From a phage: 64,000 nucleotides of DNA. The position numbers and the translations under genes are program-made. Each line of letters starts with the position of its first letter. Position 1 is the stretch's first letter. Below, piece after piece: positions 4,751-47,067 of the stretch. Below the pieces are notes generated by a model that saw only the letters and a list, made by a program, of their open reading frames with translations, was not told the DNA's origin and made no database searches. The stretch lies in assembly GCA_033286805.1 (NCBI GenBank), contig GCA_033286805.1_4727.1; one strand, 5' to 3'.

Positions 4751-4788
4751 CTTTATCTCCTTAACGGTTGCTGGTAACGCGGCATAAA

Positions 4789-4806
4789 CCCTCCCCGAAG
4801 GGAGGG
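4789..4806 (-). terminator. intrinsic terminator hairpin (minus-sense CCCTCCC-UUCG-GGGAGGG) with TTTATGCCG tail
   Basis: 7-bp GC stem with UUCG tetraloop 11 nt after the stop of 4817..5374. Confidence 0.6.
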
Positions 4807-4816
4807 TGATTAACGA

Positions 4817-5374
4817 TTACTCCATCCATACTTCTTCGTCGTAATGATTTTCTATCGCATTACGCCAAAAACGCACGGTGTCCAAACTAATCGGCGCATA
4901 AAAATGCTGATCAACGCCGACATTAAGTCCGTTGGCCTTCGCTAACATACAGCGATGAATATGACCGAATAGATTGAAGTAGCCTGGGTTTCTTTCGCTG
5001 GGCTTATGGCATAGCCAGTAGGATTCGTCATTGCTAATCGGCAACACCAACGGATGTTCATAAACCGCAGCAAACCCCATACCGAGCAATTTATCACGCC
5101 ATGCTTCAAAGCTTAATCCTGTTGCTTTGTATGCGTCTTCGTCCCAATTCCCCAATACCAATTGAACCTGGATATCAGAACGAATGGCTTCCACGAACTC
5201 GAACTTACCCCAATCACCTAAATGCCATAACACACTGTTCTTTGGAAGCTTGTTGATGGCTTTCAGCATATGCTGGTTCATATCGGCGACGCTTGCGAAC
5301 GGACGGCGTGAATACGTCCATGTACGCTCGCTATCAAAATGGGTATCCGACATAAAGAAGATGGACGGGGTCAT
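4817..5374 (-). CDS. metallophosphoesterase (calcineurin-like, possible Ser/Thr phosphatase type), 185 aa
   Basis: Ordered metal-binding motifs SDTHF (DxH), GDWG (GD), GNWDE (GNHD/E-like), GHIH (GHxH). Confidence 0.7.
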   Translation of the reverse strand: MTPSIFFMSDTHFDSERTWTYSRRPFASVADMNQHMLKAINKLPKNSVLWHLGDWGKFEFVEAIRSDIQVQLVLGNWDEDAYKATGLSFEAWRDKLLGMGFAAVYEHPLVLPISNDESYWLCHKPSERNPGYFNLFGHIHRCMLAKANGLNVGVDQHFYAPISLDTVRFWRNAIENHYDEEVWME

Positions 5375-5853
5375 TGATCTAATTGCTCCAGAAATGCACG
5401 ACCCGATTTACTTGCTTTTAAATGCTGTTCTGCGGAAGTAAGCAGAAGATCGGTTGGTGTATATGCAGCGCTACCTTTCCACGCTGTTTTCAGTTTACCC
5501 TTTTCGATACTGAACTGAATCAGTTGTTGGGTACCGAAGTTAAGCGTGTTCGTCGCGGCGCTAAATACACCACCCATCATGCTGTAACCAAAGACTTTCA
5601 CGTTTTCCGTGTAGAAGTCATTGTCGATCAATTTGTTCTGGAGCTCGAGTTGGTCGGACGGCAGCAATCCCCCATCGAAGACGCTTAAAATACCAGCCAG
5701 GCGATACATACTCACCTTTCCTGAAACGCCCACCACGTAGTTGCCGTACACGGTTTCTTCCAGTTTAGCAACAACGGTGCGATCGTCGGAGGTTTTCATC
5801 GAAACCTCAATACCATCACCAACTTCTGTTAACGTTAAATCAACGATACTCAT
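5371..5853 (-). CDS. hypothetical protein (160 aa)
   Basis: ORF with 4-nt overlap to 4817..5374. Confidence 0.55.
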   Translation of the reverse strand: MSIVDLTLTEVGDGIEVSMKTSDDRTVVAKLEETVYGNYVVGVSGKVSMYRLAGILSVFDGGLLPSDQLELQNKLIDNDFYTENVKVFGYSMMGGVFSAATNTLNFGTQQLIQFSIEKGKLKTAWKGSAAYTPTDLLLTSAEQHLKASKSGRAFLEQLDQ

Positions 5854-5875
5854 TCATTATTCTCCGCTTTCATGT

Positions 5876-6562
5876 TTAACACATGATTTCACCATGTTTC
5901 TTTTCAACATACGTATAAACGTCATCCAAATAAGCAATGAGTTTATCACGATCCGCACAGAGCGATTTAATCATCGCAATCTCTTTCATATAAAGCTGCT
6001 GACCTAACGCCGGATAGGTAATCCAAGCGTAGCCGTCAGGCGCAAATTTAGAAATAAGATAATCGGCGGTTTCCTGTAATGCGAACTCTTTGCTCATCTG
6101 GCCGTAACGATGTTCGATTGCACGGATACCAAAACGTTCGCTATCGAGACGACCCATATCCGCCAGACGAAGCACCTGAGAAGCAACAGAACTACGTGGA
6201 CCAGAGTGCGAGGCACGATGTTCAGCAATAAGTACGCGTATCTCCTCGATGTCTTCCGGTGTGAAAATATCCTGCTCGTTACGAAGCAGGATAACCGATG
6301 CACGAATACCACCGATAAGGTGGTGGTATGTTCTGTTTTCGTGGCAAGCGATATCATGCATAAAAGCAGCGGTTAATAGACGACGACGTTCCGTGGGTCT
6401 GATGATCCCAACCACATCAGCAAGTTCATTTGCCAGTTCAACAACAGCAAGCACATGTTCTTCTTGATGTGCAAGATCGTTCTTCCGAATATTTTCAATT
6501 ACTTCAGCGCGAGTTTCCTGAGATAAGAAATTTAAACAATCCAACGAATATAAAGATTTCAT
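5876..6562 (-). CDS. HD-domain phosphohydrolase (228 aa)
   Basis: H ... FMHDIACHE ... H ... LRLADM arrangement typical of the HD superfamily; early-promoter-like motif 49 nt upstream. Confidence 0.6.
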   Translation of the reverse strand: MKSLYSLDCLNFLSQETRAEVIENIRKNDLAHQEEHVLAVVELANELADVVGIIRPTERRRLLTAAFMHDIACHENRTYHHLIGGIRASVILLRNEQDIFTPEDIEEIRVLIAEHRASHSGPRSSVASQVLRLADMGRLDSERFGIRAIEHRYGQMSKEFALQETADYLISKFAPDGYAWITYPALGQQLYMKEIAMIKSLCADRDKLIAYLDDVYTYVEKKHGEIMC

Positions 6563-6603
6563 CGCACGTACCTCTTTGAATCTATTAATAAATTTTCTTT
6601 ACT

Positions 6604-6627
6604 CACGTAAGTAATATAGCCGTGAAA
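6604..6627 (-). promoter_or_regulatory. early-promoter-like motif (minus-sense TTTCACGGCTATATTACTTACGTG)
   Basis: One of four near-identical copies, each 49-94 nt upstream of a minus-strand start codon; core TATATTAC. Confidence 0.5.
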
Positions 6628-6706
6628 GGATTTGTGTTGGTCCGTTTCGATGCCCATCGTATTTTATGGATTGTCGAATGACGTCATTTTAAGGGACATC
6701 CCCGGC

Positions 6707-6740
6707 CTCCTCCCCAGGAAAGGTGTGGGGAGGAGTTTTT
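6707..6740 (+). terminator. GC hairpin plus T5 run (plus orientation); role unclear
   Basis: ctcctcccca / tggggaggag 10-bp stem, 9-nt loop, then ttttt; no upstream plus-strand gene. Confidence 0.35.
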
Positions 6741-6770
6741 ATCATACATTCTATTAAATCGAGCGCGATT

Positions 6771-8852: not shown

Positions 8853-8858
8853 TTAAGA

Positions 8859-8884
8859 AGCTCTGCCTGACATCAGGCAGAGCT
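8859..8884 (+). terminator. hairpin terminator after the SNF2 helicase gene
   Basis: Perfect 11-bp stem agctctgcctg / caggcagagct with 4-nt loop; weak T-rich tail. Confidence 0.45.
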
Positions 8885-8951
8885 TCATGCTGTATTTGTT
8901 GCAAGATCGTATGACGTATATGCGTTGTACTTATTTAATAAGGCAGAATAA

Positions 8952-10403: not shown

Positions 10404-10459
10404 AAAAAAAAAAATAGATAGCATATCTTCCTCCCTACCCATAACGGGCGGGGAGGAAG
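10402..10459. terminator. bidirectional terminator between convergent genes (hairpin plus A13/T13 run)
   Basis: cttcctccc / gggaggaag stem at 10427..10459; 13-A homopolymer 10402..10414 gives a T13 tract for minus-strand transcripts. Confidence 0.55.
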
Positions 10460-10476
10460 GTTTATGTCAATTTAAT

Positions 10477-11773: not shown

Positions 11774-14404
11774 TTACAATTCAAAATCTTCATCGATAAC
11801 ACGCTGGGTAAGCACTTTGTCGCTGAAGAACTCCACCTTGCGCTGATGGTATTTACGGTGCGCTTCGATAGAAGTACATACCAGATACCAGAACGTTGGC
11901 GTCATTCCTTCAAACTTCCCTTTCAGCTGACGCAGTCGTCCCAACACCTGAATGTTGCCGGTTCGTGACCCCATCGCTAACGTCATGAACGTCATCACCA
12001 AGTCAGGAAGGTCGATACCGGTACCTGCCGATTTCACGGTTGTAACGCTAATATCGTTATCCAGCAAGACCATGAAATCTTCTTCAGCAGTATAAGGACC
12101 GATCTCTAGCTCAGGAATACGTTCACTGAGATAATGCGACAACGACTTACACATATCAACGGTTGCACAATACACCAGCATCTTCATACCTTCCTGATAC
12201 TGGTTCATAAAACCTTTGATAATAACGGTATAGATGAAGTTAAAGTACGCGAGTTTGAGTTGCTTGTTCTTCATGATAGACTGTTCAAATATCGTGTGCG
12301 AATAAGCTCCACCAAACCCTTTGTATCTGACTTTATCTGTACTGCGTAGTCGATATGTTACCGCATTTACCGCAATGTATTTCTTGTATTCGCCTTTCGC
12401 ATAACGGGCTTCTTTCGGATACATCAAATACAGCATCTGTTCGATAAACGGATCATCGGATACCGCTGTTGCCGACAGATAAATGATTTCCGGAATATTG
12501 GCGTAACACTTGACCTTAAACAAGAAATGCAATGCTTCGTGACACTCGTCATGAATCAGCAAACCTATGCCGGTCTTTTCCCAAAACTCAGCGGGATGGA
12601 AGGCATATGGCGCAACGCAGTTATTCTTCTCGTAGTCCGCAATATAACGTTGGAACATGTTCAAGGAGAACAATGCGATTTTGAAGTCGAGTTCACCCTG
12701 TTCAACCAAGGTTTGAAACTCCAGCATGCTGTAACGAGGAATGTCGGGATGCGGTGGATCCTCCTTAGCGTTCCCGCGTATCTCGATAACATCCCCTGGT
12801 TCCATCCCGAAGAAGTTCAGCAGCGAGCTTCGCCAACCTGGCATATACCGTGGAGAAAGTATAATGCCTGTGCGCACACCCCGTCTAAACACGATTTCCT
12901 GCGACATCGCGGTGTTGTGTGTGACGATAAAGTCTTTCACCACAAACAACGCTGAAGGATCATCGATCGTAATGCAACGTGCATCCGCAACACGGGAAGG
13001 TTTGATTGACAGTACACGCAGCATACTTTCGAAGTATTGTCCGTCGACAGGACAACGTTCCAGCTTCTTCGGAAGTGTAACGATTTCATGTGGACGTTTA
13101 TACCGTATCGTAACCATGTACGCCAATCGTCCCTTATGTCTTTCCCCCTTGTAGGTGTAATACGGTTGTTTAATACGTAGACGAGCATATCCACCGATCG
13201 AACGAACCAAGTAGATAACGTCATCTGAAAGCTGTTTGCTCGAAGTACAGAAAACAATAGATCCGCCTTTATCTACCGTTCCGTCGGTATCGATAAGACC
13301 TGCAAGTATTTCGCAACGCTGTCTATGCGACGCCATCATGTACTGTTTCGGAACAAACTTCTCCCAGGCTCGTTTACCCATCAACCCCAACTGATCAAGC
13401 GCGGATGCTGTCTCCGACCGCCCACCGTAATTGATTAACGTTGCGGCAGGCGTCTTCGTTACCGCATAGTCGTATTTGTCACGGTACTGTATTTCACAGT
13501 CATCAGGAAGACGACTTAACACCTTATTCAAGATGAAATCGTCAGGAGTTGTAATGATTGGAGATGTCGTTAAATGACCGTCCCCTAACAGAACACCAAG
13601 CACGTACGGATCAAGCGGTAAATCTGCATCAGGAGTATCCTCAGACTCACAATACGGAATGTAAAGTCGTTTATTGGACAGCTCCAGGATACGAATCATC
13701 TCAAGTGTATTGATAACCCGCATGGGATAAGGATTGTTTTTGTCCCATCCCCAGTTAGGTCTCATGCACGCCCAGAGATGCTCGCCGCAGGCTTCAACAC
13801 GACGACCGTCAGCAAAGACAATCTCATAGAGCTGTTTTGCTTTATGGTCGAAGATATTGGTTACCTTCGTTGGTCGGCCATTAGCAGCCGTGATGGTATC
13901 ACCTAGCTTCAAATCGCCTAATTGACGCCATCCGCCAGGGACTTTTACGAGCGTGGTAAGCGGATTCGCTTTACCAGACCCCGTTTGAGCGGTGTTTAGG
14001 CTCATTCTGAAGGGGGTATCCTTACCCCCGTTCATGTACTCCAGCCATTCTTGTTGATCTTCACGCCACGGAAACTTCCATTTCTTTACGAACTCCACTT
14101 CCTTACCTGGTACCGGATCGTGATAAACGATTTCCAACCACTCTTTTCGGATTCCTCGAGAGAAGATAAAATCCAAAAACGATTTCAACTGTTCGCGGAG
14201 TAAGTATACCTCGCTATAATCGCTTCTCGCTGCGGCGTAGGTGTTAATGGTATCGGTGACCATTCTCCGTGTACGAGGGTCGCGTCGTTTCCGTAGATGC
14301 AAACAACGGTCTCGAAGGTAATGGCCAATCAAATGGGCAAATCGAAGTCCGTATCCGCTCAGCCTCATGCCATGCGAGAAGACGTCGATACGAGCTAACT
14401 TCAT
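11774..14404 (-). CDS. SF2 DEAH-type helicase interrupted by an intein (876-aa precursor; mature helicase about 524 aa)
   Basis: Extein halves TGSGK / T reconstitute a P-loop GSGKT after removing residues 146-497; downstream DECH box and SAT motif; ATGA overlap with upstream RNAP gene. Confidence 0.75.
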   Translation of the reverse strand: MKLARIDVFSHGMRLSGYGLRFAHLIGHYLRDRCLHLRKRRDPRTRRMVTDTINTYAAARSDYSEVYLLREQLKSFLDFIFSRGIRKEWLEIVYHDPVPGKEVEFVKKWKFPWREDQQEWLEYMNGGKDTPFRMSLNTAQTGSGKANPLTTLVKVPGGWRQLGDLKLGDTITAANGRPTKVTNIFDHKAKQLYEIVFADGRRVEACGEHLWACMRPNWGWDKNNPYPMRVINTLEMIRILELSNKRLYIPYCESEDTPDADLPLDPYVLGVLLGDGHLTTSPIITTPDDFILNKVLSRLPDDCEIQYRDKYDYAVTKTPAATLINYGGRSETASALDQLGLMGKRAWEKFVPKQYMMASHRQRCEILAGLIDTDGTVDKGGSIVFCTSSKQLSDDVIYLVRSIGGYARLRIKQPYYTYKGERHKGRLAYMVTIRYKRPHEIVTLPKKLERCPVDGQYFESMLRVLSIKPSRVADARCITIDDPSALFVVKDFIVTHNTAMSQEIVFRRGVRTGIILSPRYMPGWRSSLLNFFGMEPGDVIEIRGNAKEDPPHPDIPRYSMLEFQTLVEQGELDFKIALFSLNMFQRYIADYEKNNCVAPYAFHPAEFWEKTGIGLLIHDECHEALHFLFKVKCYANIPEIIYLSATAVSDDPFIEQMLYLMYPKEARYAKGEYKKYIAVNAVTYRLRSTDKVRYKGFGGAYSHTIFEQSIMKNKQLKLAYFNFIYTVIIKGFMNQYQEGMKMLVYCATVDMCKSLSHYLSERIPELEIGPYTAEEDFMVLLDNDISVTTVKSAGTGIDLPDLVMTFMTLAMGSRTGNIQVLGRLRQLKGKFEGMTPTFWYLVCTSIEAHRKYHQRKVEFFSDKVLTQRVIDEDFEL
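12914..13969 (-). mobile_element. intein (352 aa) with LAGLIDADG homing endonuclease; class-3-like (Ala1, WCT triad)
   Basis: Hint block A-like N-terminus TLVKVPGG...GD...NGRP; two LAGLIDADG motifs (LGVLLGDGHL, ILAGLIDTDG); C-terminal FIVTHN followed by Thr+1; residue 1 is Ala; Trp in GEHLW, Cys in ARCITIDD and Thr before HN fit the class-3 WCT pattern. Confidence 0.65.
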
Positions 14405-16407
14405 AACGTGATTACATCCTCCGGTTTAGGTTCTTTACGCGGTAAAAGCATGTAGTCGATCGGATGATCCGGCTTCATGGTTGGGATATAACTGTTCGGG
14501 TTTTGGAACGCATCCAGTTGCTCTTGGTGAGCGAACTTCATACTCAAGGAGCGCATGTTCATGTTCTTCTTGAAGGTACTGAAGTATCGTGTTGTTCCCT
14601 GTTTCGGCATGCGATAATCTTTCGTGTGTGGCGAACGAATCATGCTGGCGTAGAGAATAACGTCGAGATGCGAAAGGTTCATTCGCAGACGCTGGGCACA
14701 CAGGCGATGCCAATAATACAGCACGTTTGCAACTTCTTCCGGTGTTGCTTCGTCTTCCGAGAGGAATCCGGCACTGAAAGAACCTTTCCCGAATTTGAAC
14801 TCACGTTCGATTTCTTTTGCGTATTCCATCATGTTTTTGTGGATTAACGGCATCTGGAATAACGTACGTGAATTGTCCCAATGTTTCAAGTCGAAAATCA
14901 CAATCCCGTCAGACGTCACTTCCCAGCTATGGCGTTTAAGATAACGGATAAACGCTTTACTCGGGACGACGGGACGTCCACAGAAATCGAAATTGACTTT
15001 GAGCTTACGATAGCTTTCATCTTTCCTGTCGTAAATCTCCATATCACAAAGCGTCATGTTAAACAGACGTTGCGGTATCAGCGAACTGATTTCTTCCGCT
15101 TCGGCTACATCGTACAACATGTTCGCAAGACCTAACTTCATCTTAATCAGCACGTGTTTACCTTTCAGCTCACGTGCGAGTTTGATGTCGTTCATGTTCT
15201 GGCTGTAGCGAAGGATATGTTGATATTCCGGCGGGATTGGTGCTGTGGATACCGTTGACGAACCATCGTGGTGTTTGGTGGAAAGAATGTTCTGCGTTAC
15301 CTGTTGCGAACAGGTACGCGCTGCGCCATCGCCAACATTATCGGTTAGTGCGAAGTTATGACTTAATTCACCATAACACGTTGTACATACCCCAGCAGGA
15401 TCGGGATGATGACAATAGTTAACGGAGCGCATGCGTACCGTCGTGCCGATCAATTCTTTCATGTGTGGTTGTATAGCTACCAACGAACCGTCATCACGAA
15501 TAATGAATCGACCATGGAAGCCACGCAGGTCGGTCTCATCGCGGATTGGCATCGGGATGGTCTCTTTACTACCACAATCACCAGGATGAAGTCGTTGTAC
15601 AACCGCTGTCGCTATCTGAAGTTCACGACCGAAATATTCAGACTTTTTAATCTGCTCTTTGTTGAACAGCAACGATTTCGCCGCAGAACGACTTTCTTTC
15701 AAGCTGTCGGGAAGAGAGATCAAACCAGCTGCGTATGACCGCATTACTGGATCACGGAATATCTCGGAGTTAATATCAGTCAAGAATCCACGCATCCCAA
15801 TACACTGTAGCACCTGCCCAATCGAAACGTGTTCGGTTCTTACCGCACGTGCAATAGGGTTTGCATGTAACGTTTTATCGGTGCTCAGTACCTTCGTCAG
15901 TTTCTTGTATGCGCTTTCGATACCTTCGCGGGTGGGTTCCGCTTCAGCGATGATTTTCTTAACTTCAGGGTGTACAGTAATCTGATAAAAATCATCCGCA
16001 CAAATAGTTGTTACGTATTCCTCCAACGCATACGTAAAGAAGTTATACACATTGTTAAACATATCGAACAATGCTTTCCAGAGAACCTCGCGATTCTCTT
16101 GTGGGTAAGCATACATACATTGACGATACGCTGCGCTTTGCAACGCAACCGACGAACCAGCAGTAAACTTGCGTTTATCGACCAGGTTCTCTTTTGTCAA
16201 CGGTGTCTCAGGATACATGCGATGCACAGACCAATGCATGTAACTAAAGAAAATGCGTCGCGCACGTAATTCATGAACGCCATCGTCCATCTCGATATAT
16301 ACACGGTCATTAGGCTGTGCCCATTCGAACACCTCATCAACCGGCCAGTGCATAAGCTCGCGTGCCCTCACACGACGTTTCGTGGTGGTCGTCTGTGTTG
16401 TATTCAT
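14401..16407 (-). CDS. multisubunit RNA polymerase beta' subunit, C-terminal fragment (668 aa)
   Basis: AGVCTTCYG matches the beta' GVCAHCYG zinc-binding segment; SQQVTQNILSTKHHDGSS resembles the trigger-loop GTQLTMRTFHIGGA. Confidence 0.65.
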   Translation of the reverse strand: MNTTQTTTTKRRVRARELMHWPVDEVFEWAQPNDRVYIEMDDGVHELRARRIFFSYMHWSVHRMYPETPLTKENLVDKRKFTAGSSVALQSAAYRQCMYAYPQENREVLWKALFDMFNNVYNFFTYALEEYVTTICADDFYQITVHPEVKKIIAEAEPTREGIESAYKKLTKVLSTDKTLHANPIARAVRTEHVSIGQVLQCIGMRGFLTDINSEIFRDPVMRSYAAGLISLPDSLKESRSAAKSLLFNKEQIKKSEYFGRELQIATAVVQRLHPGDCGSKETIPMPIRDETDLRGFHGRFIIRDDGSLVAIQPHMKELIGTTVRMRSVNYCHHPDPAGVCTTCYGELSHNFALTDNVGDGAARTCSQQVTQNILSTKHHDGSSTVSTAPIPPEYQHILRYSQNMNDIKLARELKGKHVLIKMKLGLANMLYDVAEAEEISSLIPQRLFNMTLCDMEIYDRKDESYRKLKVNFDFCGRPVVPSKAFIRYLKRHSWEVTSDGIVIFDLKHWDNSRTLFQMPLIHKNMMEYAKEIEREFKFGKGSFSAGFLSEDEATPEEVANVLYYWHRLCAQRLRMNLSHLDVILYASMIRSPHTKDYRMPKQGTTRYFSTFKKNMNMRSLSMKFAHQEQLDAFQNPNSYIPTMKPDHPIDYMLLPRKEPKPEDVITL

Positions 16408-16530: not shown

Positions 16531-16552
16531 GCTGGCCTTTATGTCGGCAGCA

Positions 16553-17038: not shown

Positions 17039-17152
17039 AATCTCATTTCCTCTTATACGTTAGGATAGATGACATGTTGGATATACGTTGCCTTTGCATA
17101 TATTGCTTTATTTCCGTCAGAAATAACGGAAAATAAAAACAACGACATAATT

Positions 17153-17182
17153 CCCTCCCACCTCCACATGGGAGAGGGAGGG
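17153..17182 (-). terminator. hairpin terminator (ccctccc / gggaggg)
   Basis: GC stem followed on minus sense by ATTATGTCG and a T-rich run. Confidence 0.45.
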
Positions 17183-17590: not shown

Positions 17591-18016
17591 TTAAAACTTT
17601 AAAACTTTTTCGATACGATGGTTGACGAGTTCATTGAACGACTCTTCAGCTTGTTCGATGATTTCATCAACGTCGATATCTAATTGTTGGGGTTGGATAA
17701 CATGCTCTTTCATGGTTTCCAGCCAGTATTCGGCTTTAATCATGACGTTAGCGACGTGTTCGACCTGGCTGCGTATGTCGACGATCTGGCAGTCAGGATT
17801 GTTAATATCGATGATGTGTCCGTGGTGGTTGATAAAACCTAGCTTATTTGATGCCCTTACCGCATCGCGGGTAAGTTCTTGCAAGATTAAATTATTAACG
17901 TAGTTCACTGCTACGGAACGATTTTCGTTATCACTCATACCAGGGATCCTCTTTAAGTCATCACATTCTAGTGTTAAGCAGTTAAAATAAACCGTTCCTT
18001 TTATCAGCATAAACAT
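17591..18016 (-). CDS. hypothetical protein (141 aa)
   Basis: ORF between hairpins. Confidence 0.5.
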   Translation of the reverse strand: MFMLIKGTVYFNCLTLECDDLKRIPGMSDNENRSVAVNYVNNLILQELTRDAVRASNKLGFINHHGHIIDINNPDCQIVDIRSQVEHVANVMIKAEYWLETMKEHVIQPQQLDIDVDEIIEQAEESFNELVNHRIEKVLKF

Positions 18017-18045
18017 CCTCCTCCCACCACATGGGTAGGAGGAGG
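18017..18045 (-). terminator. hairpin terminator (cctcctcc / ggaggagg)
   Basis: 8-bp stem followed on minus sense by TTTATGCTG. Confidence 0.45.
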
Positions 18046-18478: not shown

Positions 18479-20647
18479 TTAGCTTTCGCAGTCATCTGCG
18501 TCGATGATTTGTCCGCCAGCAACGTTCAGTTGATGATACAGAATCCTCAACGCACGGTTGCCGCCAATGGGATACTTCTCGAAGTTGGTCGCAATAGGAA
18601 TCGCTGACGGTTTATCGGTCGCATAGATGCTTTCAGTGATGCTATCCACCTGTTTTGGATTGTTCGCATAATCCATAAAGACGCTTGCGAACCATCCGCC
18701 AGCAAAGGCGGTAACTTCGCGATGTTCAGATTCACCACAGTAACGAGTTGGTTGCTCTTTACCCGGAGAACTGTATTTATCGCTATTACTGAGTTTCGAC
18801 GGTAATCCATGCGCTTGCAGTTTAGGGATGCCCACCGCTGACCAGTCGTTCGCCGTCTTCTCCAACATCATGATGTACGTGTCACCGATCGCAATATCGT
18901 TCTTGGTTGTCCGCCATTGCCCAGAACGTCCACGATACCGTACAGGACCTTTCTTCAACGGGAACTCACGAATCAGATTCTCCATACGTTCTGAACCTGC
19001 TGCGATACTGTCCGTCGGGATATAAACTTCCGTACCGTGGCGCTGTACGTACCGTAAATGATCCCATTTATCCTCATCCGTGATACAGTATTTTTCAACA
19101 ACCTGTTCCACGAACTCAGGACTGACGATATAGTAGTAGCGCATCAGTGTGTTCCAAGCGGTCTCCAGATCGCCTGCATCCATCACCGGTTTCAGTTCAC
19201 GCATGATCTGATCACCAACGCCGTTGATGTACGGTGCGTTAACACGACTTAAACTCATCCTTTTGATTACCGTACTATCGTCGAACATGAAGTCCGCAAC
19301 GTTACCCCATTGGTCGACCGGCATTTCATCGTCTTCCATGATGTCGGTTACGACGAATTTATCACCCGCCATACCGGTGAATTTAAACCCGATACCTGGA
19401 ACGACGTCGTACGTGTACGTGATGGTCACACGCCAATCATCGAGATTCTCTTTGCGGTAATCGCGAGTCGGTAGCACATGACGTAGCTGTCCGTTGGGAT
19501 TGCGGATATCAATACCATGTTCAGCATCAGCCAGGTTCAACCACCACATCACCGTTTGATGATGACGTATCGGCGTACCAACGCGTTCACGTTCGTACTT
19601 ACGAACAGCATCCTGAATCCGGGTGTAAAGCAAACCGATTGCGTTCTCGTATTTCAGGAATTGACGATACGGAGGACGCATCTTCTCTTCCATCATAATC
19701 GCACGCTCGCGGGCTTGACGTCCAGAACGACGATGTCGATCGCTGACAACATCGATATCCGTTACACGCGCATTCGGTTCCGCGTAAGTGAGGTCATCGT
19801 AAACATAATCCACGCGCTGAAGATTACACGTCATCATGTCAACAACGCTAAGGATAGGATCGATTTCGCGTGTTGCTGCGAGTAACCCATCCTTACGAAT
19901 ACGCTCACCGTTCTCGGGTATTGCTTGATATACCTCGTCATCACCGTAGAGATTGATTGGGTATCGCGATTTACCTGACGTGATTGTTCGCTTCTCAATA
20001 CCGGTACTGGTGAAATGCTTCAATACACCACGACGGGCAACGCCACCATCTTCAATACACTGATAGAAGCTACCGAAACACACCTTGCAATCGCGACCGT
20101 AGCCCCACTCGCGCGTTTCTTGATTGATCGCTGGGCTTTCCATCAAACGAGAATATCGCGGTACGATCTGGCCTCGACGGAGGGAATGGAACAAGTTGGT
20201 TGGTCGAAAACGGAAACCGTACTGCTGATGCATGATGTGATGCTCAGGCACTTCGAGCAAACGCAGTTCGTGACGGTTACCATCCTCTTGGTTTTCATAC
20301 AGCACGTAATGCATCGTGTTTGTTTTGATGCTGTTTGCTGTATGCCCCGGTTGGAAACGTGGGATGATATCTATGATGCGAGATTCAACTGGAAACTCTA
20401 CTGACCACGTGTTCTGTCCGTACTGGTATTCGATCCCCGTCGTCAGTCGGGACGGTTTCGCATCTTTGATAACCAACGCTTGGCTAAGATGTCCACCAAA
20501 CATCGCAGCGCGCTGTGCTGAGTTATAATGCAATAGCCCGTTAAGTCCTGTCCCTACGCCAGTATACTCCTGTTTAATGGGAATGATTTTACCTTCAGCG
20601 ATTGCCTGCTTCACAGATTCATAAAGAGGTTTTTCTTTATAATGCAT
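18479..20647 (-). CDS. multisubunit RNA polymerase beta subunit, C-terminal fragment (about 722 aa)
   Basis: SAQRAAMF...AKPSRLTTGIE resembles beta NMQRQAVP...DKPLVGTGME; GMAGDKFVV...DEMPVD resembles GRHGNKGV...EDMPYD; RYCGESEHREVTAFAGG resembles RFGEMEVWALEAYGAA; start moved to ATG 20647 (AGGAAG SD) because the 55-aa extension is Ser/Arg-rich and overlaps the plus-strand gene. Confidence 0.65.
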   Translation of the reverse strand: MHYKEKPLYESVKQAIAEGKIIPIKQEYTGVGTGLNGLLHYNSAQRAAMFGGHLSQALVIKDAKPSRLTTGIEYQYGQNTWSVEFPVESRIIDIIPRFQPGHTANSIKTNTMHYVLYENQEDGNRHELRLLEVPEHHIMHQQYGFRFRPTNLFHSLRRGQIVPRYSRLMESPAINQETREWGYGRDCKVCFGSFYQCIEDGGVARRGVLKHFTSTGIEKRTITSGKSRYPINLYGDDEVYQAIPENGERIRKDGLLAATREIDPILSVVDMMTCNLQRVDYVYDDLTYAEPNARVTDIDVVSDRHRRSGRQARERAIMMEEKMRPPYRQFLKYENAIGLLYTRIQDAVRKYERERVGTPIRHHQTVMWWLNLADAEHGIDIRNPNGQLRHVLPTRDYRKENLDDWRVTITYTYDVVPGIGFKFTGMAGDKFVVTDIMEDDEMPVDQWGNVADFMFDDSTVIKRMSLSRVNAPYINGVGDQIMRELKPVMDAGDLETAWNTLMRYYYIVSPEFVEQVVEKYCITDEDKWDHLRYVQRHGTEVYIPTDSIAAGSERMENLIREFPLKKGPVRYRGRSGQWRTTKNDIAIGDTYIMMLEKTANDWSAVGIPKLQAHGLPSKLSNSDKYSSPGKEQPTRYCGESEHREVTAFAGGWFASVFMDYANNPKQVDSITESIYATDKPSAIPIATNFEKYPIGGNRALRILYHQLNVAGGQIIDADDCES

Positions 20648-21037: not shown

Positions 21038-21066
21038 CCCTCCCACAGCGTAAAGCGTAGGGAGGG
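21038..21066. terminator. hairpin terminator between convergent genes
   Basis: ccctccc / gggaggg stem; plus-sense tail CATTTATGCCG. Confidence 0.5.
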
Positions 21067-21097
21067 CATTTATGCCGTCGTTCGATGACTTAATACA

Positions 21098-22378: not shown

Positions 22379-22433
22379 ATTGTATTTCCTTTTCTTTACG
22401 TCAACGGTCCCCCTACAACAGGGGACCTATGGA

Positions 22434-30291: not shown

Positions 30292-30351
30292 TTCATAGAG
30301 TGGTGGAAATTCGTAGAAAGTTACAAAAATAAAAAAGAATGGGCAGCCCCT

Positions 30352-30369
30352 CCCCACCCGAAGGTAGGG
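30352..30369 (-). terminator. hairpin terminator with UUCG tetraloop
   Basis: minus-sense ccctacc-ttcg-ggtgggg (one U-G wobble), T-run 12 nt downstream. Confidence 0.45.
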
Positions 30370-30386
30370 AGAGACCGCAAATATAC

Positions 30387-31768: not shown

Positions 31769-31810
31769 GATTGTCCTCGTTTTCAATTTTAAGATTGCAT
31801 GCGGCATAAA

Positions 31811-31835
31811 CCCTCCCCGCCTTATGCAGGGAGGG
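31811..31835 (-). terminator. hairpin terminator with TTTATGCCG tail
   Basis: ccctccc / gggaggg stem. Confidence 0.55.
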
Positions 31836-31850
31836 TAGCCATTAAATGGA

Positions 31851-34705: not shown

Positions 34706-34747
34706 GGGGTATCTCCTACAAATGAAAAAGAACGTTAGGACGTATAA

Positions 34748-34771
34748 GGGAGGGAGGTTGCCCTCCCTCCC
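34748..34771 (-). terminator. strong hairpin after the candidate chimallin gene
   Basis: Perfect 10-bp stem gggagggagg / cctccctccc with 4-nt loop, 27 nt after the stop. Confidence 0.55.
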
Positions 34772-38042: not shown

Positions 38043-38046
38043 TCAC

Positions 38047-38090
38047 CTCCCTCTTCCCTTGCATCCTCCCAACCCGTAAGGGAAGGGAGG
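38047..38090. terminator. extended imperfect hairpin between convergent genes
   Basis: tccctcttccct / agggaagggagg arms. Confidence 0.4.
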
Positions 38091-38108
38091 ATGGGGTGGT
38101 GGATTATG

Positions 38109-40262
38109 TTACTCTGCGGTTTCTCGCTTCGGTAAATAACTTGCTGCGATGTCTTGGGCCAACAATGTATTGTTTTTATTCGAGATGAAAATACCGTAAC
38201 TTTCCATTAACGCGTAATACGAACGCACGAGCGTAGAGATCAATCGACGAATATCCATACCTTGAATAAAGATATCGGGAAGCCCGGAGGCTTCGATCAC
38301 CGGTAATGGTATCGTTAAGTTGCTTATCGTTTTCTTATCGTTACGTACAATCCAATCACGGAAACGTTGTTGTAACCCTTTATCCTCCCAGGAATCAATC
38401 CAATCGTTAAGAAGCGTTTTGTTCTTCGTCGCCAACGGCACACGAACCCCAACATAGGGTGGTTCCTGGCAATGGCCGTACGATTGAGCAAACACCTCTT
38501 CCCACATATCGTAAGACTGTTTCGTTACTGCAACATGCGGTTTCACTTTAACACGTGTTAAGAAATCAGGATCACCACGTTTCATGGACTCAACGATTTC
38601 GTTTTCTAACGAGATAATATCATCAAGAACCAATCGAATGCTGATCTTCTCATTACGTAACAGCTTATCCATGATACCACACATCATGCGTTCAACACGT
38701 TTGACGATCATTTTTGGTGCTGACGCATCGCGCATAACCGGACCTTTCAATTCCAGCTTCGGTGGATTGATAGGAACCCCCTCACGCATGGTCATGTAAC
38801 CGTAATAGTTTTTACCCATCGAGGTTAACGACAGAATCAAGAACATATATTCGTTCTTCATTTCCATTACGTACATATGCTCTTTCGCCACACCGATATT
38901 ACCAGAACACATCGCCATCAGATGGACTGTAATCTGCGTAACCAGATAGATAAGCGTGTTTGCTAAGCGCGTCGAAACTGGATTGATCTCCATATTTCCA
39001 AATCGCCACTGAACCCACTCCTGGCAGGTAAACACCGTCGAGTCGGTATCAGACAACACGCCCACTTCACGGATTGCTGATGGGAAAGCATAAACACCAG
39101 CCGGTTGGTTCTCGGTACGCCAGAACGCCATAATCAAATCAGCATAGCTTTGAATACGCTGTAGCATTAATTTTGTCGTTGCTGCAGTAAGACGATAACC
39201 AAGCTCATTTCCTTTTTCTAGCGCTACGTAAATCGCTTCCCCATTCAAGAACTCCGTACATTGTGCTGTAATCCAAGCGACCGTGTTGTTATCCATGGAA
39301 GCAATAATGGCTTTAGCCTCTTCCATCGTTTCAACAGGTTCGGATGCCAGCTCGCATAACGAATCAAGAAAATCTCGAACAAATTCAGGATTAAGCTCAC
39401 GTAACGAGTACAGGTTATTGCTGTACATGTAGCAGGCGCGTTCCAGTGGGGTTAAACCGGTAATTAACTCCCGGATAGTCAGTTCTTTCTCTGGGTCGAA
39501 AGTATACCGATGCAAGCATTTCGATACGTTAGCCCAAACCTCTTCCGGCGTAGGGTAATGTAGTTTGTATTTTACCATTACCTGTTCAATGGCTTTACGA
39601 TCGCTGTTGCGGACAATACTCACGATGTTTTCAATTGCGATATCACAATCGTAATAATGGAAATTGCCCGCAAGGAAGCGTTCGTTGTTCGCATTGGCTG
39701 AACCTGAAGCACAGCGACATGTTGTCGTTAAACTTGGATGTGCGATCGGATTATAAAAAGGGTTAAACTTGGACGCCTGGGTTCCTGACAAACTGTTGTT
39801 ATCTAACTTGGTGTTGGTTTGTCGTTTATCGTGTAACTCAGCTTCATCTTTACGTCCGTGTGCTTGTGCTATCGACATTTGTTTCTTTTGTTTCTTACGC
39901 AACTTACCGTTTTCAACCGCGAAATCGCTTAGCACACTGGAACGTGTTTCACGTGGATAACAGTTAGCCCATACCGGCGTGATAATTAAATTATTTTCTT
40001 TAATATCATTGAAGTATTGGCTGAACTTAATGACTTCTTTTTCTCGATTTCCTTCGGTACGCTGTGTTAATACAAGACAGTCGGGATCAACCATCCCGTA
40101 TTTTCCACCGGGACGAACCGTATCAAGGACAAACTGTAACGCTTCCTGCTGTGATATCCCACGCATGCGCATTAAGAACAGGGTATAATCCTGTACCGCT
40201 TCTTTGGTCATATCCAACGTACGACCATATCCGTTTTCATCGTAAAAGAACGGATTTTCCAT
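38109..40262 (-). CDS. large hypothetical protein (717 aa); function unassigned
   Basis: Long ORF with GGAGG SD; contains LSDTDS and KNYYGY motifs but in the wrong order for a family-B polymerase. Confidence 0.6.
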   Translation of the reverse strand: MENPFFYDENGYGRTLDMTKEAVQDYTLFLMRMRGISQQEALQFVLDTVRPGGKYGMVDPDCLVLTQRTEGNREKEVIKFSQYFNDIKENNLIITPVWANCYPRETRSSVLSDFAVENGKLRKKQKKQMSIAQAHGRKDEAELHDKRQTNTKLDNNSLSGTQASKFNPFYNPIAHPSLTTTCRCASGSANANNERFLAGNFHYYDCDIAIENIVSIVRNSDRKAIEQVMVKYKLHYPTPEEVWANVSKCLHRYTFDPEKELTIRELITGLTPLERACYMYSNNLYSLRELNPEFVRDFLDSLCELASEPVETMEEAKAIIASMDNNTVAWITAQCTEFLNGEAIYVALEKGNELGYRLTAATTKLMLQRIQSYADLIMAFWRTENQPAGVYAFPSAIREVGVLSDTDSTVFTCQEWVQWRFGNMEINPVSTRLANTLIYLVTQITVHLMAMCSGNIGVAKEHMYVMEMKNEYMFLILSLTSMGKNYYGYMTMREGVPINPPKLELKGPVMRDASAPKMIVKRVERMMCGIMDKLLRNEKISIRLVLDDIISLENEIVESMKRGDPDFLTRVKVKPHVAVTKQSYDMWEEVFAQSYGHCQEPPYVGVRVPLATKNKTLLNDWIDSWEDKGLQQRFRDWIVRNDKKTISNLTIPLPVIEASGLPDIFIQGMDIRRLISTLVRSYYALMESYGIFISNKNNTLLAQDIAASYLPKRETAE

Positions 40263-40337
40263 AAATCCTCCAAAAGTTATTTAGTCTGTCTACATCATCT
40301 CGTATATCTGTTAAAAAAGAAGGACGGCATAAAAAAG

Positions 40338-40365
40338 AACCGATCCAGCCGAAGCCAGATCGGTT
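40338..40365 (-). terminator. intrinsic terminator: 12-bp stem, UUCG tetraloop, U-tract then TTTATGCCG
   Basis: minus-sense aaccgatctggc-ttcg-gctggatcggtt with two G-U wobbles that are valid only on the minus-sense RNA. Confidence 0.65.
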
Positions 40366-40975: not shown

Positions 40976-40990
40976 AATAGCATCCTTTAT

Positions 40991-44361: not shown

Positions 44362-44384
44362 GCTTTCTCCTAGACGGCATAAAA

Positions 44385-44404
44385 GCCTGCCCCGAAGGAC
44401 AGGC
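44385..44404 (-). terminator. intrinsic terminator: 8-bp stem, UUCG tetraloop, TTTTATGCCG tail
   Basis: minus-sense gcctgtcc-ttcg-gggcaggc (one U-G wobble). Confidence 0.6.
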
Positions 44405-44414
44405 TCGATAGAAC

Positions 44415-44615
44415 TTAACGACCATCCAATTTCAATGAAGGATGGTTGACGATATGTGCGTGTTTTGCTGGGTCATATAGCTGATATGGAAAATAGCCAT
44501 GCCATTGACGGCCTTGGCATTTCGTACACAGGAACTGACCAACACCTTGTCGATTCTCGTAAGCGAGTTCGGTACTATCAACATGTCCGCAACGTTCGCA
44601 GATAAACAGCGACAT
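44415..44615 (-). CDS. small zinc-ribbon protein (66 aa)
   Basis: CERCGH ... CTKCQG Cys pairs. Confidence 0.5.
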   Translation of the reverse strand: MSLFICERCGHVDSTELAYENRQGVGQFLCTKCQGRQWHGYFPYQLYDPAKHAHIVNHPSLKLDGR

Positions 44616-44652
44616 AGCGCATCCCCATTCACTTGAACCTTTTGGTTCGGCA

Positions 44653-45633
44653 TTAGAAAAGCAAGAAACCGCTATTCTTCGCTTCCGCTACAGTTTCGTC
44701 ACCAACTTTCGGTGCTTGTTGACGTGCGTTACGATGTTCGATGTAACGTTTCGCTTCGTCCGCGATCTGTTTGATAATACCCCCTAAACGATCGGTACTT
44801 AAAACAAACGACGTCGCTTCACGAATCGGGCTGCTTTCAGGCACAAAACCATCACAGCTATAAATAGCGCTAACACCCATGACTTTTGTCGCGTCTTTCG
44901 GATAAAGCGTACAGAAAGCAATCGGGCTATCGTTCTCTTTCGTCCAATCGTATCCCATGAACGTATTCAGTTCGGTGATCGTTGGTTCCAAACCGGTAAC
45001 ACGTGGATGGTTTAAGAAGTTTTCCAGGTCGGCGCTGTCAAGACGACGGTTCTCGCCAGAAAACAGAACACAAAGCTGGCTAATAACAACCTGGACGTCC
45101 AGGTTGACATCCTGCTCCGATTTCCCATTTTCGCCATTCATGTGATAGCTAACAATCACCGGACGTTTCAATCCTTCTGCGGCTGCCATCAGTCCTTTGA
45201 AGGTGCGATCGGCGTTGATCGTCTGGCGCTCATCATCGAACGAGGCAACGATACAACACACCACACGTTCACCGCGTTCCAGCAGGTTAGCAACCAACGC
45301 AGGACCGGCAACAGAACCTGAACCACCGCTCAAACTAAAGACCACGATATTAAATTTACCCGGCGTATGCTTATTGAGAATACCTGGGATTTGTGAACAG
45401 ATCAGTTCAGCGTTCTCATCACGCTTCTTACCAGAACCGTCTAACTCACGACCAGCTGCATCTTTAAAGATGTAAATATGATCGTCGCCCAGTGTGCTAT
45501 CGCGTAGGTTAGCGCGGCTGGTATCAACATACGTCATGCTGTGTAATCCTTTCGCGACTTCGCCTTCAAATGCTGAGCCGATTTCGCCACCACAACCACC
45601 GACAGCCCAAATATGTACTTGGTTCTCTTGCAT
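44653..45633 (-). CDS. phuZ: PhuZ-type phage tubulin (TubZ/FtsZ-like GTPase), 326 aa
   Basis: N-terminal nucleotide loop AVGGCGGEIG; tubulin signature-like SLSGGSGSVAGP (GGGTGSG family); strong AGGAG SD. Confidence 0.75.
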   Translation of the reverse strand: MQENQVHIWAVGGCGGEIGSAFEGEVAKGLHSMTYVDTSRANLRDSTLGDDHIYIFKDAAGRELDGSGKKRDENAELICSQIPGILNKHTPGKFNIVVFSLSGGSGSVAGPALVANLLERGERVVCCIVASFDDERQTINADRTFKGLMAAAEGLKRPVIVSYHMNGENGKSEQDVNLDVQVVISQLCVLFSGENRRLDSADLENFLNHPRVTGLEPTITELNTFMGYDWTKENDSPIAFCTLYPKDATKVMGVSAIYSCDGFVPESSPIREATSFVLSTDRLGGIIKQIADEAKRYIEHRNARQQAPKVGDETVAEAKNSGFLLF

Positions 45634-45697
45634 GTGAACTCCTAACTTAATATGTATTTAACGCACAATGAATCTTTCTTTGCTAAAGGGGTGACCC

Positions 45698-46540
45698 ATG
45701 GGTGCTATTGACTACAGTGTAGATCGTATCTGTCGTACAATACCGGCAGATATCCTACAGTATTGCTATATCGATCGTTACGACTGGCGTAATCGCTATC
45801 CTCGTTCCGTAGAAGACATCATTACCGATTGGGTAATCCGTAAACGGGTTATCGGCGACATCGATATATACGGGGGACTACAAACCGTTATCCCCCTTGA
45901 TGATGCCGGTGTCACTATCGAAGAAGTCACCATTAACTGTTATGTTTTCCACATCCCGTTGGAAGCCACACAGGGACGTTATATCACGTCTGCATTATCC
46001 ATTATTTCAGGGAGCGTGAACAACTACGGAATAAACTATAACGGGCAATGGGGTGCTTTCAACCAAACCCAGTTTCAACGTCAGCTTTGTGGGTGGAACC
46101 CTGCAAGCAACACGTTACAGCAGGGGATGAACGCGTTCGGTCCTATGAACGTTCTTAGTACAGCCAACGTTGATATCATCGCCCCTAACACCATCATGGT
46201 GAACAACGTCACGCCGGTACAATTTCCCCTGAGCCTACGTTGTTTCCTTGCCCACGATCCGGAACTTACTAACCTCAGCATGGAGGTTTGGAACGACTTC
46301 TACAAACTCTGTTTATACGCCACACAAAGTGACATCTATAACAGAACCGTTATCCGTCTCGATAGAGGTGTTACAGCACAAGGACAAGAAGTCGGTGCAT
46401 TCAAGGAATACATCGATCGCTTTGCCGATGCTGAAAACACATATCAGGAATTCCTCAACGAAACGTGGGCAGGCGTTGCCGCCTGGAACGATCCGCAAAC
46501 TAAACGTCGCGCCATTCGACTACAAACCGGTTACTTCTGA
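45698..46540 (+). CDS. hypothetical protein (280 aa)
   Basis: Divergent from phuZ; followed by plus-strand terminator 46554..46578. Confidence 0.55.
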   Translation: MGAIDYSVDRICRTIPADILQYCYIDRYDWRNRYPRSVEDIITDWVIRKRVIGDIDIYGGLQTVIPLDDAGVTIEEVTINCYVFHIPLEATQGRYITSALSIISGSVNNYGINYNGQWGAFNQTQFQRQLCGWNPASNTLQQGMNAFGPMNVLSTANVDIIAPNTIMVNNVTPVQFPLSLRCFLAHDPELTNLSMEVWNDFYKLCLYATQSDIYNRTVIRLDRGVTAQGQEVGAFKEYIDRFADAENTYQEFLNETWAGVAAWNDPQTKRRAIRLQTGYF

Positions 46541-47067
46541 TTAACGACAGCTTCCTCCCTCGGAGTTTTCGAGGGAGGTATTTGCCGCTTGAACACTTTC
46601 AGCATGTTCGCAAAATCAGCAGCAATAATACAGGCCGAGGTTGACAGCTTATTGCTGAAAATGAGATCGTCCGGTAAACAATCGAACTGAATACCGTATT
46701 GCGTCTTTGTCTCATCAACGATCAATGATGGTGTCGATCTTGTCTTCGCGATGTCGGTGATATACAAACGTAAAAATAATTCACCGTCTTCGCTATCCAT
46801 AAAACGATAAGCGTTACCAGAAAATGCAGCATGTGGCGTAACGATAAATTGAACACGATCGTCGGTCGGATGGATATTTAACCAACGTTCGATATCACTG
46901 CTACTCACATTTTGCATATTTACTACGGTAAAAGCAAATAGCGTATCGTGATGTTTGGAATAATGCAGCACATACGCCGCATCTTTCTTTCCGTGAATCC
47001 CTTCAATGTATTCTATTGTCGTATAGCCGGATTTATATAGCTTTACTTGCGGTTTATCACTCATCAT
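46531..47067 (-). CDS. hypothetical protein (about 178 aa)
   Basis: Start moved to the ATGA stop-start junction at 47064-47067. Confidence 0.45.
   Translation of the reverse strand: MMSDKPQVKLYKSGYTTIEYIEGIHGKKDAAYVLHYSKHHDTLFAFTVVNMQNVSSSDIERWLNIHPTDDRVQFIVTPHAAFSGNAYRFMDSEDGELFLRLYITDIAKTRSTPSLIVDETKTQYGIQFDCLPDDLIFSNKLSTSACIIAADFANMLKVFKRQIPPSKTPREEAVVNQK
46554..46578 (+). terminator. hairpin terminator after plus gene 45698..46540
   Basis: Perfect 9-bp stem cctccctcg / cgagggagg, loop gagtttt, tail TATTTGCCG. Confidence 0.55.

Follow-up and report, generated by a model that had tools for sequence, protein, structure and literature searches.

The 64,000-nucleotide stretch of phage DNA analysed here (GenBank assembly GCA_033286805.1, contig GCA_033286805.1_4727.1; hereafter the window) carries a set of intergenic GC-rich hairpins, most of which are followed by a short tail related to TTATGYYG. 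We conclude that these elements are very probably factor-independent transcription terminators, conserved in the Chimalliviridae and used by the phage's own multisubunit RNA polymerases. A 10 kb sample of the window matched a single entry in the phage collection, Escherichia phage vB_EcoM_Goslar, with 95.5% identity over 89% of its length. Goslar, a nucleus-forming E. coli jumbo phage of the Chimalliviridae, is ~95% identical to the window, and its annotation places the genes for chimallin, PhuZ tubulin, DNA polymerase, terminase, tail sheath and several 'RNA polymerase beta' proteins in this region. The premise of the initial annotation that the phage is phiKZ-like is correct, because two open reading frames (ORFs) of the window are orthologues of gp74 and gp71-73, which are subunits of the non-virion RNA polymerase of phiKZ (nvRNAP; Table 1). 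A phiKZ-type multisubunit RNA polymerase is represented by these two subunits in the window and by an orthologue of gp123 in Goslar.

The exact 9-mer TTTATGCCG occurs five times in the window against 0.68 copies expected, and none of 100 shuffles reached five. Each of the five copies begins at -1 to +4 nt relative to a hairpin's 3' end, the hairpins having folding energies of -15.7 to -22.0 kcal/mol. The initial annotation had reported this fivefold occurrence as well above chance and had proposed an enrichment test downstream of hairpins; its sites are real, with positions shifted by 0-4 nt, and the variant tails that it named (TTTATGTCA, AATTATGTCG, TTTATGCTG and TATTTGCCG) are all present at the positions given in Table 1. 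Enrichment downstream of hairpins is indeed found: a hairpin combined with a strict tail (TTATKYYG or TATGYYG) occurs seven times, compared with 0.13 times in shuffled sequence (maximum two). Hairpins of -10 kcal/mol or better number 95 in the window, as against 45.9 +/- 8.5 in 60 dinucleotide shuffles. The looser word TTTATGYYG is matched 11 times (2.86 expected), with six of the matches after hairpins; the other five have no adjoining strong hairpin, four being intragenic and one lying in the loop of a weak intergenic hairpin.

Folding of each intergenic gap of at least 25 nt gave a catalogue of ~17 elements that carry the tail or a one- or two-base variant of it, one element with a classical T run (30324-30378) and a few that are tail-less. 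At least 13 hairpins in the window have a polypyrimidine 5' arm and a polypurine 3' arm, spanning -12 to -30 kcal/mol, which bears out the earlier count of at least a dozen. Such hairpins are present at each of the window's five convergent junctions. The canonical U-tract of ~7-9 nt, mostly U, is replaced in most tails by UUAUGYYG, and T runs are confined to 30324-30342, to the minus side of the element at 10418 and, in part, to 40334-40337. The element at 30324-30378 shows that elements with a plain U-tract exist alongside those with the tail. A generic terminator scanner (at least five T in eight) applied to positions 1-20000 detected one of these elements, at 18017. An Rfam scan of the window returned no family at gathering score, and neither this nor a tRNA scan gave anything relevant to the hairpins.

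To establish the breadth of the signal, the whole assembled Goslar genome was compared with 24-41 kb around the chimallin gene of eight phages (phiKZ, PhiPA3, Noxifer, Ea35-70, Eowyn, SA002, LucasX and RSL2), with T4 and AR9 as controls. The chimallins of the eight are 20-24% identical to that of the window. In Goslar 11 of 105 intergenic hairpins, but none of 362 coding hairpins, have TTATGYYG behind them, and of 86 copies of TATGCYG about 25 stand directly after a hairpin of -16 kcal/mol or better, essentially all of these being extragenic. An unseeded test for 5-mers over-represented in the 12 nt after intergenic hairpins took the place of a seeded expectation-maximization search, which was biased by its seed. 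The top words in Goslar, phiKZ, PhiPA3, Noxifer, Ea35-70, Eowyn, SA002 and LucasX were TTATG, TATGC, TTTAT, ATGCC and TGCCG, at 15- to 80-fold over-representation. The signal was weakest in RSL2 (12 hairpins), where TTATG was found three times against 0.1 expected and T-rich words ranked first. The tail words were not found after hairpins in T4 or in AR9, a jumbo phage outside the Chimalliviridae, both of which gave T-rich words only.

The geometry is also conserved. The first T of TATG lies 2-4 nt past the last G:C pair in 69 of 107 cases and, family-wide, the bases that follow TATG are C (64%), C (64%), G (62%) and T (46%). The pattern CCCTCCC-N3-7-GGGAGGG-N0-3-TTATGCCG was found in 101 stretches among 2.9 million IMG/VR contigs. 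Among the 80 stretches listed, 37 contigs are represented, 26 of them longer than 200 kb and some with at least ten copies. The protein content of the motif-bearing stretches was assessed by tblastn with phage ORFs, chimallin having no conserved block for a profile search; 74 of the 101 encode Goslar-like proteins, compared with four that matched the T4 or AR9 control queries.

The placement of the elements follows that of the genes. They sit downstream of co-oriented genes, and bidirectional copies occupy orthologous convergent junctions (between DNA polymerase and a gp052-like gene, and at a gp042-like neighbour of PhuZ) in the window, as well as in almost every lineage for which the annotation was consulted. 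Terminators of the tail type follow both presumed early and late genes, a late example being that of the major head protein at Goslar 43302. The Goslar orthologue of the element at 4780 carries the tail TTTATGCTG, and the elements at 40325 and 44375 are putative terminators in the Goslar annotation.

In support of termination as the function, we note that the same kind of element has been mapped experimentally in two relatives. In phiKZ, ONT-cappable-seq of transcript 3' ends gave 61 intrinsic terminators predicted by ARNold, with the motif BCCYCCCCHWWDGGGRRGGBYTTATKYYGT, that is, a stem-loop with TTAT after it (Putzeys et al., 2024, Microlife; PMC10914365). Of the intrinsic terminators predicted for the six Pseudomonas phages of that study, over 70% are from phiKZ, and six bidirectional terminator regions were located between convergent genes (PMC10914365). 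The commonest terminator motif of 201phi2-1 (motif A) 'strongly resembles' the phiKZ motif, and eight 201phi2-1 terminators were functional in a terminator-trap reporter (PMC11512511). The window sequence ACCCTCCC-uucg-GGGAGGGT-TTATGCCG(T/C) matches the phiKZ motif almost letter for letter. When phiKZ DNA is read directly, elements such as GCCTCCC-cuag-GGGAGGC-TTTATGCTG and GCCCTCCC-auugc-GGGAGGGC-TTATGCCA are seen, with others alike.

The window elements share with those of phiKZ and 201phi2-1 the C-rich and G-rich arms, the short loop, the TTAT-K-YY-G-T tail immediately after the stem, the intergenic position with bidirectional copies at convergent genes, and a genome encoding phiKZ-type virion and non-virion RNA polymerases. 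They differ in that the host is E. coli and the lineage very distant, the shell protein being ~20-25% identical. At the K position the window phage favours G over T. It also has more c-UUCG-g loops, longer stems and a subfamily of near-identical repeated bidirectional elements, and its elements are predicted from sequence, whereas those of phiKZ come from transcript mapping. Like a canonical bacterial intrinsic terminator, the element has a GC-rich hairpin, a U-rich start to the tail and a position after genes, with long T runs in some cases (30343 and the minus side of 10418); unlike it, the U-tract is reduced to UUAU and followed by a conserved G-Y-Y-G. The type is therefore of a known kind, already established in relatives, and its description in the Goslar lineage is the first among the literature that we found.

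Several observations weigh against this assignment. A literature search gave no transcript-end data for this phage or for Goslar, nor any paper dealing with the terminator tail. The tail is GC-rich where a canonical terminator has U's, so that release 7-9 nt from the stem would leave strong last hybrid pairs; exactly where release takes place, and what GYYG does, are guesses. Strong intergenic hairpins at 22406, 53297 and 11721 have no tail and the hairpin at 30343 has a plain T run, and the tail is therefore not obligatory. Finally, the spacers at 18005, 40325, 38103 and 55561, of 3-9 nt, cannot be reconciled with one rigid geometry.

The hairpins appear to be selected as RNA, and in one direction. 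Sense-strand c-UUCG-g loops occur at 4795, 25730, 30358, 40349 and 44392, as the initial annotation had observed for several hairpins. Of the four stems in which it had noted G-U wobbles, those at 30343, 40338 and 44383 contain them, whereas that at 4788 is a perfect Watson-Crick stem. Its argument for a strand-specific RNA is upheld by the family-wide comparison: at tandem junctions the sense RNA is the more stable in 84 cases and the less stable in 24 (sign test p = 5e-9; mean difference 1.5 kcal/mol). This bias accords with the G-U pairs and UUCG loops and points to direction-specific selection at the RNA level. Among 24 elements compared between the window and Goslar, all three changes in outer stems preserve pairing (A-U to G-U and U-G to C-G), two changes fall at Y positions and none in TATG; the substitutions are too few for covariation and the comparison, having little power, is suggestive only.

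Selection on a sense-strand RNA structure would also suit an element for RNA processing or stability, in which an endoribonuclease of the host or phage cuts polycistronic RNA within the U/A-rich tail and the hairpin shields the new 3' end, such that the mapped phiKZ 3' ends would be processed ends and not termination sites. Tuerk et al. reportedly described, in 1988, extra-stable C(UUCG)G hairpins in the intercistronic regions of phage T4, and the very stable tetraloop on five intergenic hairpins of the window recalls these. The likeness is one of loop choice only: most members of the family have other loops, and the T4 hairpins have tails without TTATG. RNase E cleaves single-stranded A/U-rich RNA adjoining structure, and a G-rich stem followed by UUAU resembles such sites. 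The tail is conserved, however, over Pseudomonas, Xanthomonas, Ralstonia and enterobacterial hosts, and motifs of host RNases leave GYYG unexplained. Moreover, the 201phi2-1 terminators reduced downstream reporter expression (PMC11512511) and the phiKZ sites were classed as intrinsic terminators by ARNold (PMC10914365). We consider processing unlikely to account for the elements or for the phiKZ ends, and it is compatible with termination rather than exclusive of it.

We were intrigued by the presence of TATG in most of the tails. TATG is the core of the phiKZ nvRNAP late promoter (T-3 A T G+1, with the start at G; PMC4666361), as the initial annotation had stated. Every position of this core is needed in vitro (PMC4666361) and the TATG of the non-template strand is held by a pocket of phiKZ gp123 (PMC12809450). 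The Goslar protein gp039 is the gp123 orthologue and keeps seven of 14 pocket residues. The initial annotation had proposed coupled terminator-promoter cassettes, in which the hairpin would end the upstream unit and the tail TATG would act as a late promoter where nvRNAP starts, at G, for the next gene. We find this doubtful. At tandem sites the tails do lie 13-63 nt before the next start codon with a Shine-Dalgarno sequence between, but TATG follows 33 of 64 hairpins at convergent junctions compared with 38 of 106 at tandem junctions (intergenic hairpins following a co-oriented gene; gene calls approximate, with key examples checked against the deposited annotation). A late promoter drives a co-oriented downstream gene, and the tail is present also where no gene follows.

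Convergent examples verified against annotation are, in the window, 10418-10469, 21038-21077, 38062-38112, 46554-46587 and 52890-52940. Elsewhere they are phiKZ 041.3|042 and 051|052, Ea35-70 205|206 and 217|218, Eowyn 00071|00072 and 00104|00105, Noxifer gp032|033 and gp047|048, PhiPA3 050|051, SA002 2280|2290 and LucasX 56|57. In several of them CATAA stands to one side and TTATG to the other. Many bidirectional terminators have the tail on both sides, as at 10418-10469 and 52890-52940 in the window. Downstream of the element at 21038-21077 there is no co-oriented gene, the plus-strand tail at 21069 running into the opposing gene.

The sequence around TATG tells a similar story. G follows TTAT in 46-80% of tails by lineage (from the seeded model, and so biased by its seed), as a start at G would have it, yet the phiKZ motif allows T for G at the K position. 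The variants at 8887 and 25714 keep ATGCTG but have C at the promoter-essential T-3; the first, within 8857-8898, retains ATGCYG without TATG. Two TATGCC copies without a hairpin, which lie where the sheath and gp219-like late genes diverge, upstream of both, could be taken as promoters. Among twenty divergent promoter-only junctions of Goslar, however, TATGCYG has a single occurrence, upstream of gp219, while TTATGCC is seen upstream of the sheath gene, and the extension CYG(T) is almost confined to hairpin sites. Positions -4 to -12 of a tail site are GC-rich stem and would be hard to melt, whereas the late promoter P119L (…GTATTTGCTATATTGCTATG↓TAGAC…) is AT-rich upstream and has no hairpin. 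Tail and phiKZ late promoter share the same four bases in phages with orthologous polymerases; the tail has in addition a hairpin 2-4 nt upstream and a conserved CYG(T), and late promoters have neither, nothing being conserved in them beyond TATG. Finally, sites of the phiKZ motif were mapped as transcript 3' ends (PMC10914365). A coupled cassette is made unlikely by the combination of a tail no rarer at convergent junctions, a hairpin-bound CYG, the hairpin-less P119L and the phiKZ 3' ends.

Candidates for early promoters are found apart from the tails. The exact sequence TATATTACYT occurs at 6609-6618, 25664-25673, 30943-30952 and 36764-36773, all on the minus strand, upstream of the gp159-like, gp175-like (the position of phiKZ gp68), gp182-like and chimallin genes. 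It forms part of a longer common motif, CACGG[C/T]TATATTAC[T/C]T..., all copies of which are intergenic, and the same motif is present at other divergent junctions of Goslar. These motifs (…CACGGCTATATTACTT…) lie at expected promoter positions, separate from the tails, and look like the early (virion polymerase) promoter of this phage.

Sequence anatomy, enrichment, gene context, sense-strand bias and family-wide conservation are direct observations; for the way in which the terminator would act we propose the following. The nascent RNA would fold into a GC-rich hairpin with a C-rich 5' arm and a G-rich 3' arm, often capped by c-UUCG-g and with G-U pairs possible in the sense RNA only. In place of a long U-tract there follows (U)UUAU-G-Y-Y-G-(U), 2-4 nt past the last G:C pair. 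Four or five weak rU/rA:dA/dT hybrid pairs beside the hairpin would form the release segment, and the following G with its GC-rich step (G, Y, Y, G) would halt the polymerase at a fixed distance from the stem, letting the hairpin act. Elemental pauses of cellular multisubunit polymerases prefer Y-1/G+1, and the proposed stop accords with this preference. The 3'-end nucleotide and the role of each tail position are as we infer them from this arrangement. One hairpin, with CATAA to its left and TTATG to its right, would terminate both strands at convergent genes because its arms are self-complementary.

The overlap of the tail with the late-promoter core is real, and we tentatively raise the possibility that it reflects the polymerase itself. 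The tail TATG might be captured by the late-promoter beta-lobe pocket (gp123 in phiKZ, gp039 in Goslar), stalling nvRNAP with RNA ending in ...UUAU at a distance of a few nucleotides from the hairpin; at tandem sites a restart at G would be conceivable. During elongation the non-template TATG would pass the site of the gp123 pocket when the RNA ends in UUAU, and capture would produce a pause that hands over to the hairpin. Neither of the two structural papers on nvRNAP mentions termination or pausing. If true, termination would be sequence-specific and polymerase-encoded, one four-base word would mark both ends of transcription units, and the near-invariant tail across phages with ~20-25% protein identity would be explained. 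With regard to the pocket itself, Goslar gp039 (39828-41624, L003; outside the window), annotated as 'polymerase', is the orthologue of the nvRNAP beta-lobe subunit gp123 (PDB 7ogp_E, E = 1.2e-40). Residues S144, F151, K158, K190, H331, S334 and Q466 of the gp123 pocket are identical in gp039 and Y406 is replaced by F. The Goslar proteins gp078 and gp205 were considered as gp123 orthologues and rejected, both being beta'-like.

Near-identical copies of some elements lie far apart. The bidirectional element at 38062-38093, ~45 nt long, occurs at least eight times in Goslar, including 4187, 27783, 49770, 63708, 72027, 93482 and 134623. It reads C/ATCCTCCCAACCC-guaa-GGGAAGGGAGGAT/G, carries an A-A or U-U mismatch internally and has the flanks CATAA and TATGCTGTTAT; most copies lie at convergent junctions. 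The hairpin at 44383, within 44375-44406, has an identical copy at Goslar 3506. The recurrence of such near-identical elements implies that some terminators spread as copies, and would be expected of a dispersed mobile or recombinational repeat, similar to repetitive extragenic palindromic sequences or miniature inverted-repeat transposable elements, with no role in transcription. We reject this last explanation as very improbable: most stems and loops vary in sequence and length while composition, tail and spacing are kept, placement is strictly at gene ends with orientation following transcription, and the signature is conserved across ~20-24% shell-protein identity. Both ends of the Goslar record (1-60 and 237250-237307) carry the same hairpin-TATGCCG-poly(A) sequence, which is either a terminal repeat or a product of how the assembly was opened.

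The tail ATG is taken as a start codon by ORF callers and by the Goslar annotation (gp183 and gp047). In the window the ATG at 31805-31807 (minus strand) is the first of ORF 30971-31807 (gp183-like); an ATG at 31768, in the same frame and with GAGGA before it, is more likely to be the start. With GGGAGGG placed 4 nt before the ATG, and with gene callers using the tail ATG for ORF 30971-31807 and Goslar gp047, the G-rich arm (GGAGG) and tail might be read as a mimic of a ribosome-binding site that starts leader ORFs or the downstream gene. This seems hardly credible and was rejected, the purine arm being locked in a stem of -15 to -30 kcal/mol and the frames after the ATG being inconsistent (at 4780 and 40325 they give 10-11-codon ORFs, whereas 44375 is out of frame), and the motif also occurring at convergent junctions, where it reads into antisense. 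At 55561-55606 the ATG after the hairpin is the terminase start codon.

Terminators of chimallivirus RNA polymerases had previously been mapped in two Pseudomonas phages only, and a 2026 review of jumbo phages makes no mention of terminators. The hairpin-TTATGYYG signal is kept in phages of E. coli, Klebsiella, Salmonella, Erwinia, Xanthomonas and Ralstonia. It provides a simple sequence rule for annotating the ends of transcription units in nucleus-forming jumbo phages, a diagnostic signature for such phages in metagenomes and ready-made insulators for engineering Goslar; for annotation, it warns that the tail ATG misleads gene callers. Its conservation shows that the tail is under strong constraint linked to the polymerase, and the overlap of the tail with TATG connects termination with initiation in a concrete way, open to test, in an RNA polymerase that is multisubunit, highly divergent and puzzling in its promoter specificity.

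Table 1. Predicted terminator elements, related hairpins and nvRNAP genes in the window. Tail coordinates are in parentheses; energies are folding energies of the hairpins.
Feature	Position	Strand	Hairpin or evidence	Tail and remarks
Terminator after gp157-like gene	4780..4807	-	stem-loop ACCCTCCC-uucg-GGGAGGGT (4788-4807), -15.7 kcal/mol	TTTATGCCG (4780-4788)
Polypyrimidine/polypurine hairpin, divergent region upstream of gp160-like gene	6707..6747	+	6707-6735, ~-19 to -19.6 kcal/mol	TTTTTATCATAC
Terminator after gp160-like helicase gene	8857..8898	+	-24.3 kcal/mol	variant (CTTC)ATGCTGT; annotated terminator in Goslar
Bidirectional terminator, convergent gp161-like(+)/gp162-like(-)	10418..10469	both	10426-10460, ~-25 kcal/mol on either strand	plus TTTATGTCA (10461-10469); minus TATGCTAT (10418-10425), then T run
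nvRNAP subunit, orthologue of phiKZ gp74 (PHIKZ074)	14401..16407	-	PDB 7ogp_D, E = 1.3e-86	
Terminator	17143..17182	-	CCCTCCCTCTCCCAT..GTGGGAGGG (17153-17182), -20.4 kcal/mol	AATTATGTCG (17143-17152)
Terminator after gp170-like gene	18005..18045	-	CCTCCTCCTACC-caugu-GGTGGGAGGAGG, -22.6 kcal/mol	spacer 3 nt, TTTATGCTG (18005-18013)
nvRNAP subunit, orthologue of phiKZ gp71-73 (PHIKZ071)	18479..20647	-	PDB 7ogp_C, E = 6e-86	
Terminator after gp172-like(+), convergent junction	21038..21077	+	bulged CCCTCCC...GGGAGGG, -16.8 kcal/mol	TTTATGCCG (21069-21077)
Intergenic hairpin without tail	22399..22427	-	folding	GTTGACG
Hairpin, 16 bp, c-UUCG-g loop	25707..25750	-	-26.5 kcal/mol	end ..GCAT then GCTG, a CATGCTG variant
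Terminator, classical T-run tail	30324..30378	-	16-bp c-UUCG-g hairpin, -30.5 kcal/mol	CCATTCTTTTTTATTTTTG
Terminator after gp184-like gene	31802..31836	-	ACCCTCCCTGC-auaag-GCGGGGAGGGT, -22.0 kcal/mol	TTTATGCCG (31802-31810)
Terminator after chimallin gene	34738..34771	-	GGGAGGGAGG-gcaa-CCTCCCTCCC, -22.4 kcal/mol	variant TTATACGTCC
Bidirectional terminator, convergent gp245-like(+)/DNA polymerase(-)	38062..38112	both	CATCCTCCCAACCC-guaa-GGGAAGGGAGGATG	plus ATTATGTTAC
Terminator upstream of DNA polymerase gene	40325..40365	-	AACCGATCTGGC-uucg-GCTGGATCGGTT, G-U pairs, -17.8 kcal/mol	spacer CTTT, TTTATGCCG (40325-40333)
Terminator after gp235-like gene	44375..44406	-	GAGCCTGTCC-uucg-GGGCAGGCTT, G-U pairs, -17.4 kcal/mol	TTTATGCCG (44375-44383)
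Terminator after gp233-like(+), convergent junction	46554..46587	+	CCTCCCTCGGA-guu-TTCGAGGGAGG, -18.2 kcal/mol	variant TATTTGCCG (46579-46587)
Terminator-like hairpin	49846..49883	-	-19.2 kcal/mol	variant TTTATACTG
Bidirectional terminator, convergent gp224-like(+)/gp223-like(-)	52890..52940	both	52900-52928, ~-22 kcal/mol	ACTATGTTTGCC(+), CTATGAGGCC(-)
Hairpin after terminase gene, without tail	53288..53320	-	folding	
Hairpin between gp221-like and terminase genes	55561..55606	-	-24.7 kcal/mol	GAGGAG, then TTTATATGTCG

The hairpin at 6707 has no co-oriented gene upstream and stands 35 nt before the gp160-like start codon; it is annotated as a terminator in Goslar. It is possibly a terminator or attenuator in the 5' untranslated region, a type to which 42 phage terminators have been assigned (PMC10914365).

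Two other regions of the window differ from Goslar. The helicase ORF 11774-14404 (minus strand) encodes 876 amino acids, compared with 524 in Goslar gp164, and the extra segment contains a LAGLIDADG homing-endonuclease domain at amino acids 353-435 (Pfam PF14528, E = 2e-6). The segment is probably an intein without a Goslar counterpart, and it accounts for the 89% coverage in the 10 kb comparison. Further on, the region 32742-33465 (minus strand) holds two tandem, ORF-less elements resembling group I introns, at 32782-33102 and 33158-33465, which form a 376-nt direct repeat. They score 28 and 26 bits with the Rfam model Intron_gpI (gathering score 50; E = 7.6e-5 and 2.3e-4) over the full span of the model. 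They appear to separate the nvRNAP beta'-N gene (33401-34705) from its last exon (~32505-32741), and at the same site Goslar has one intron, with an HNH endonuclease ORF.

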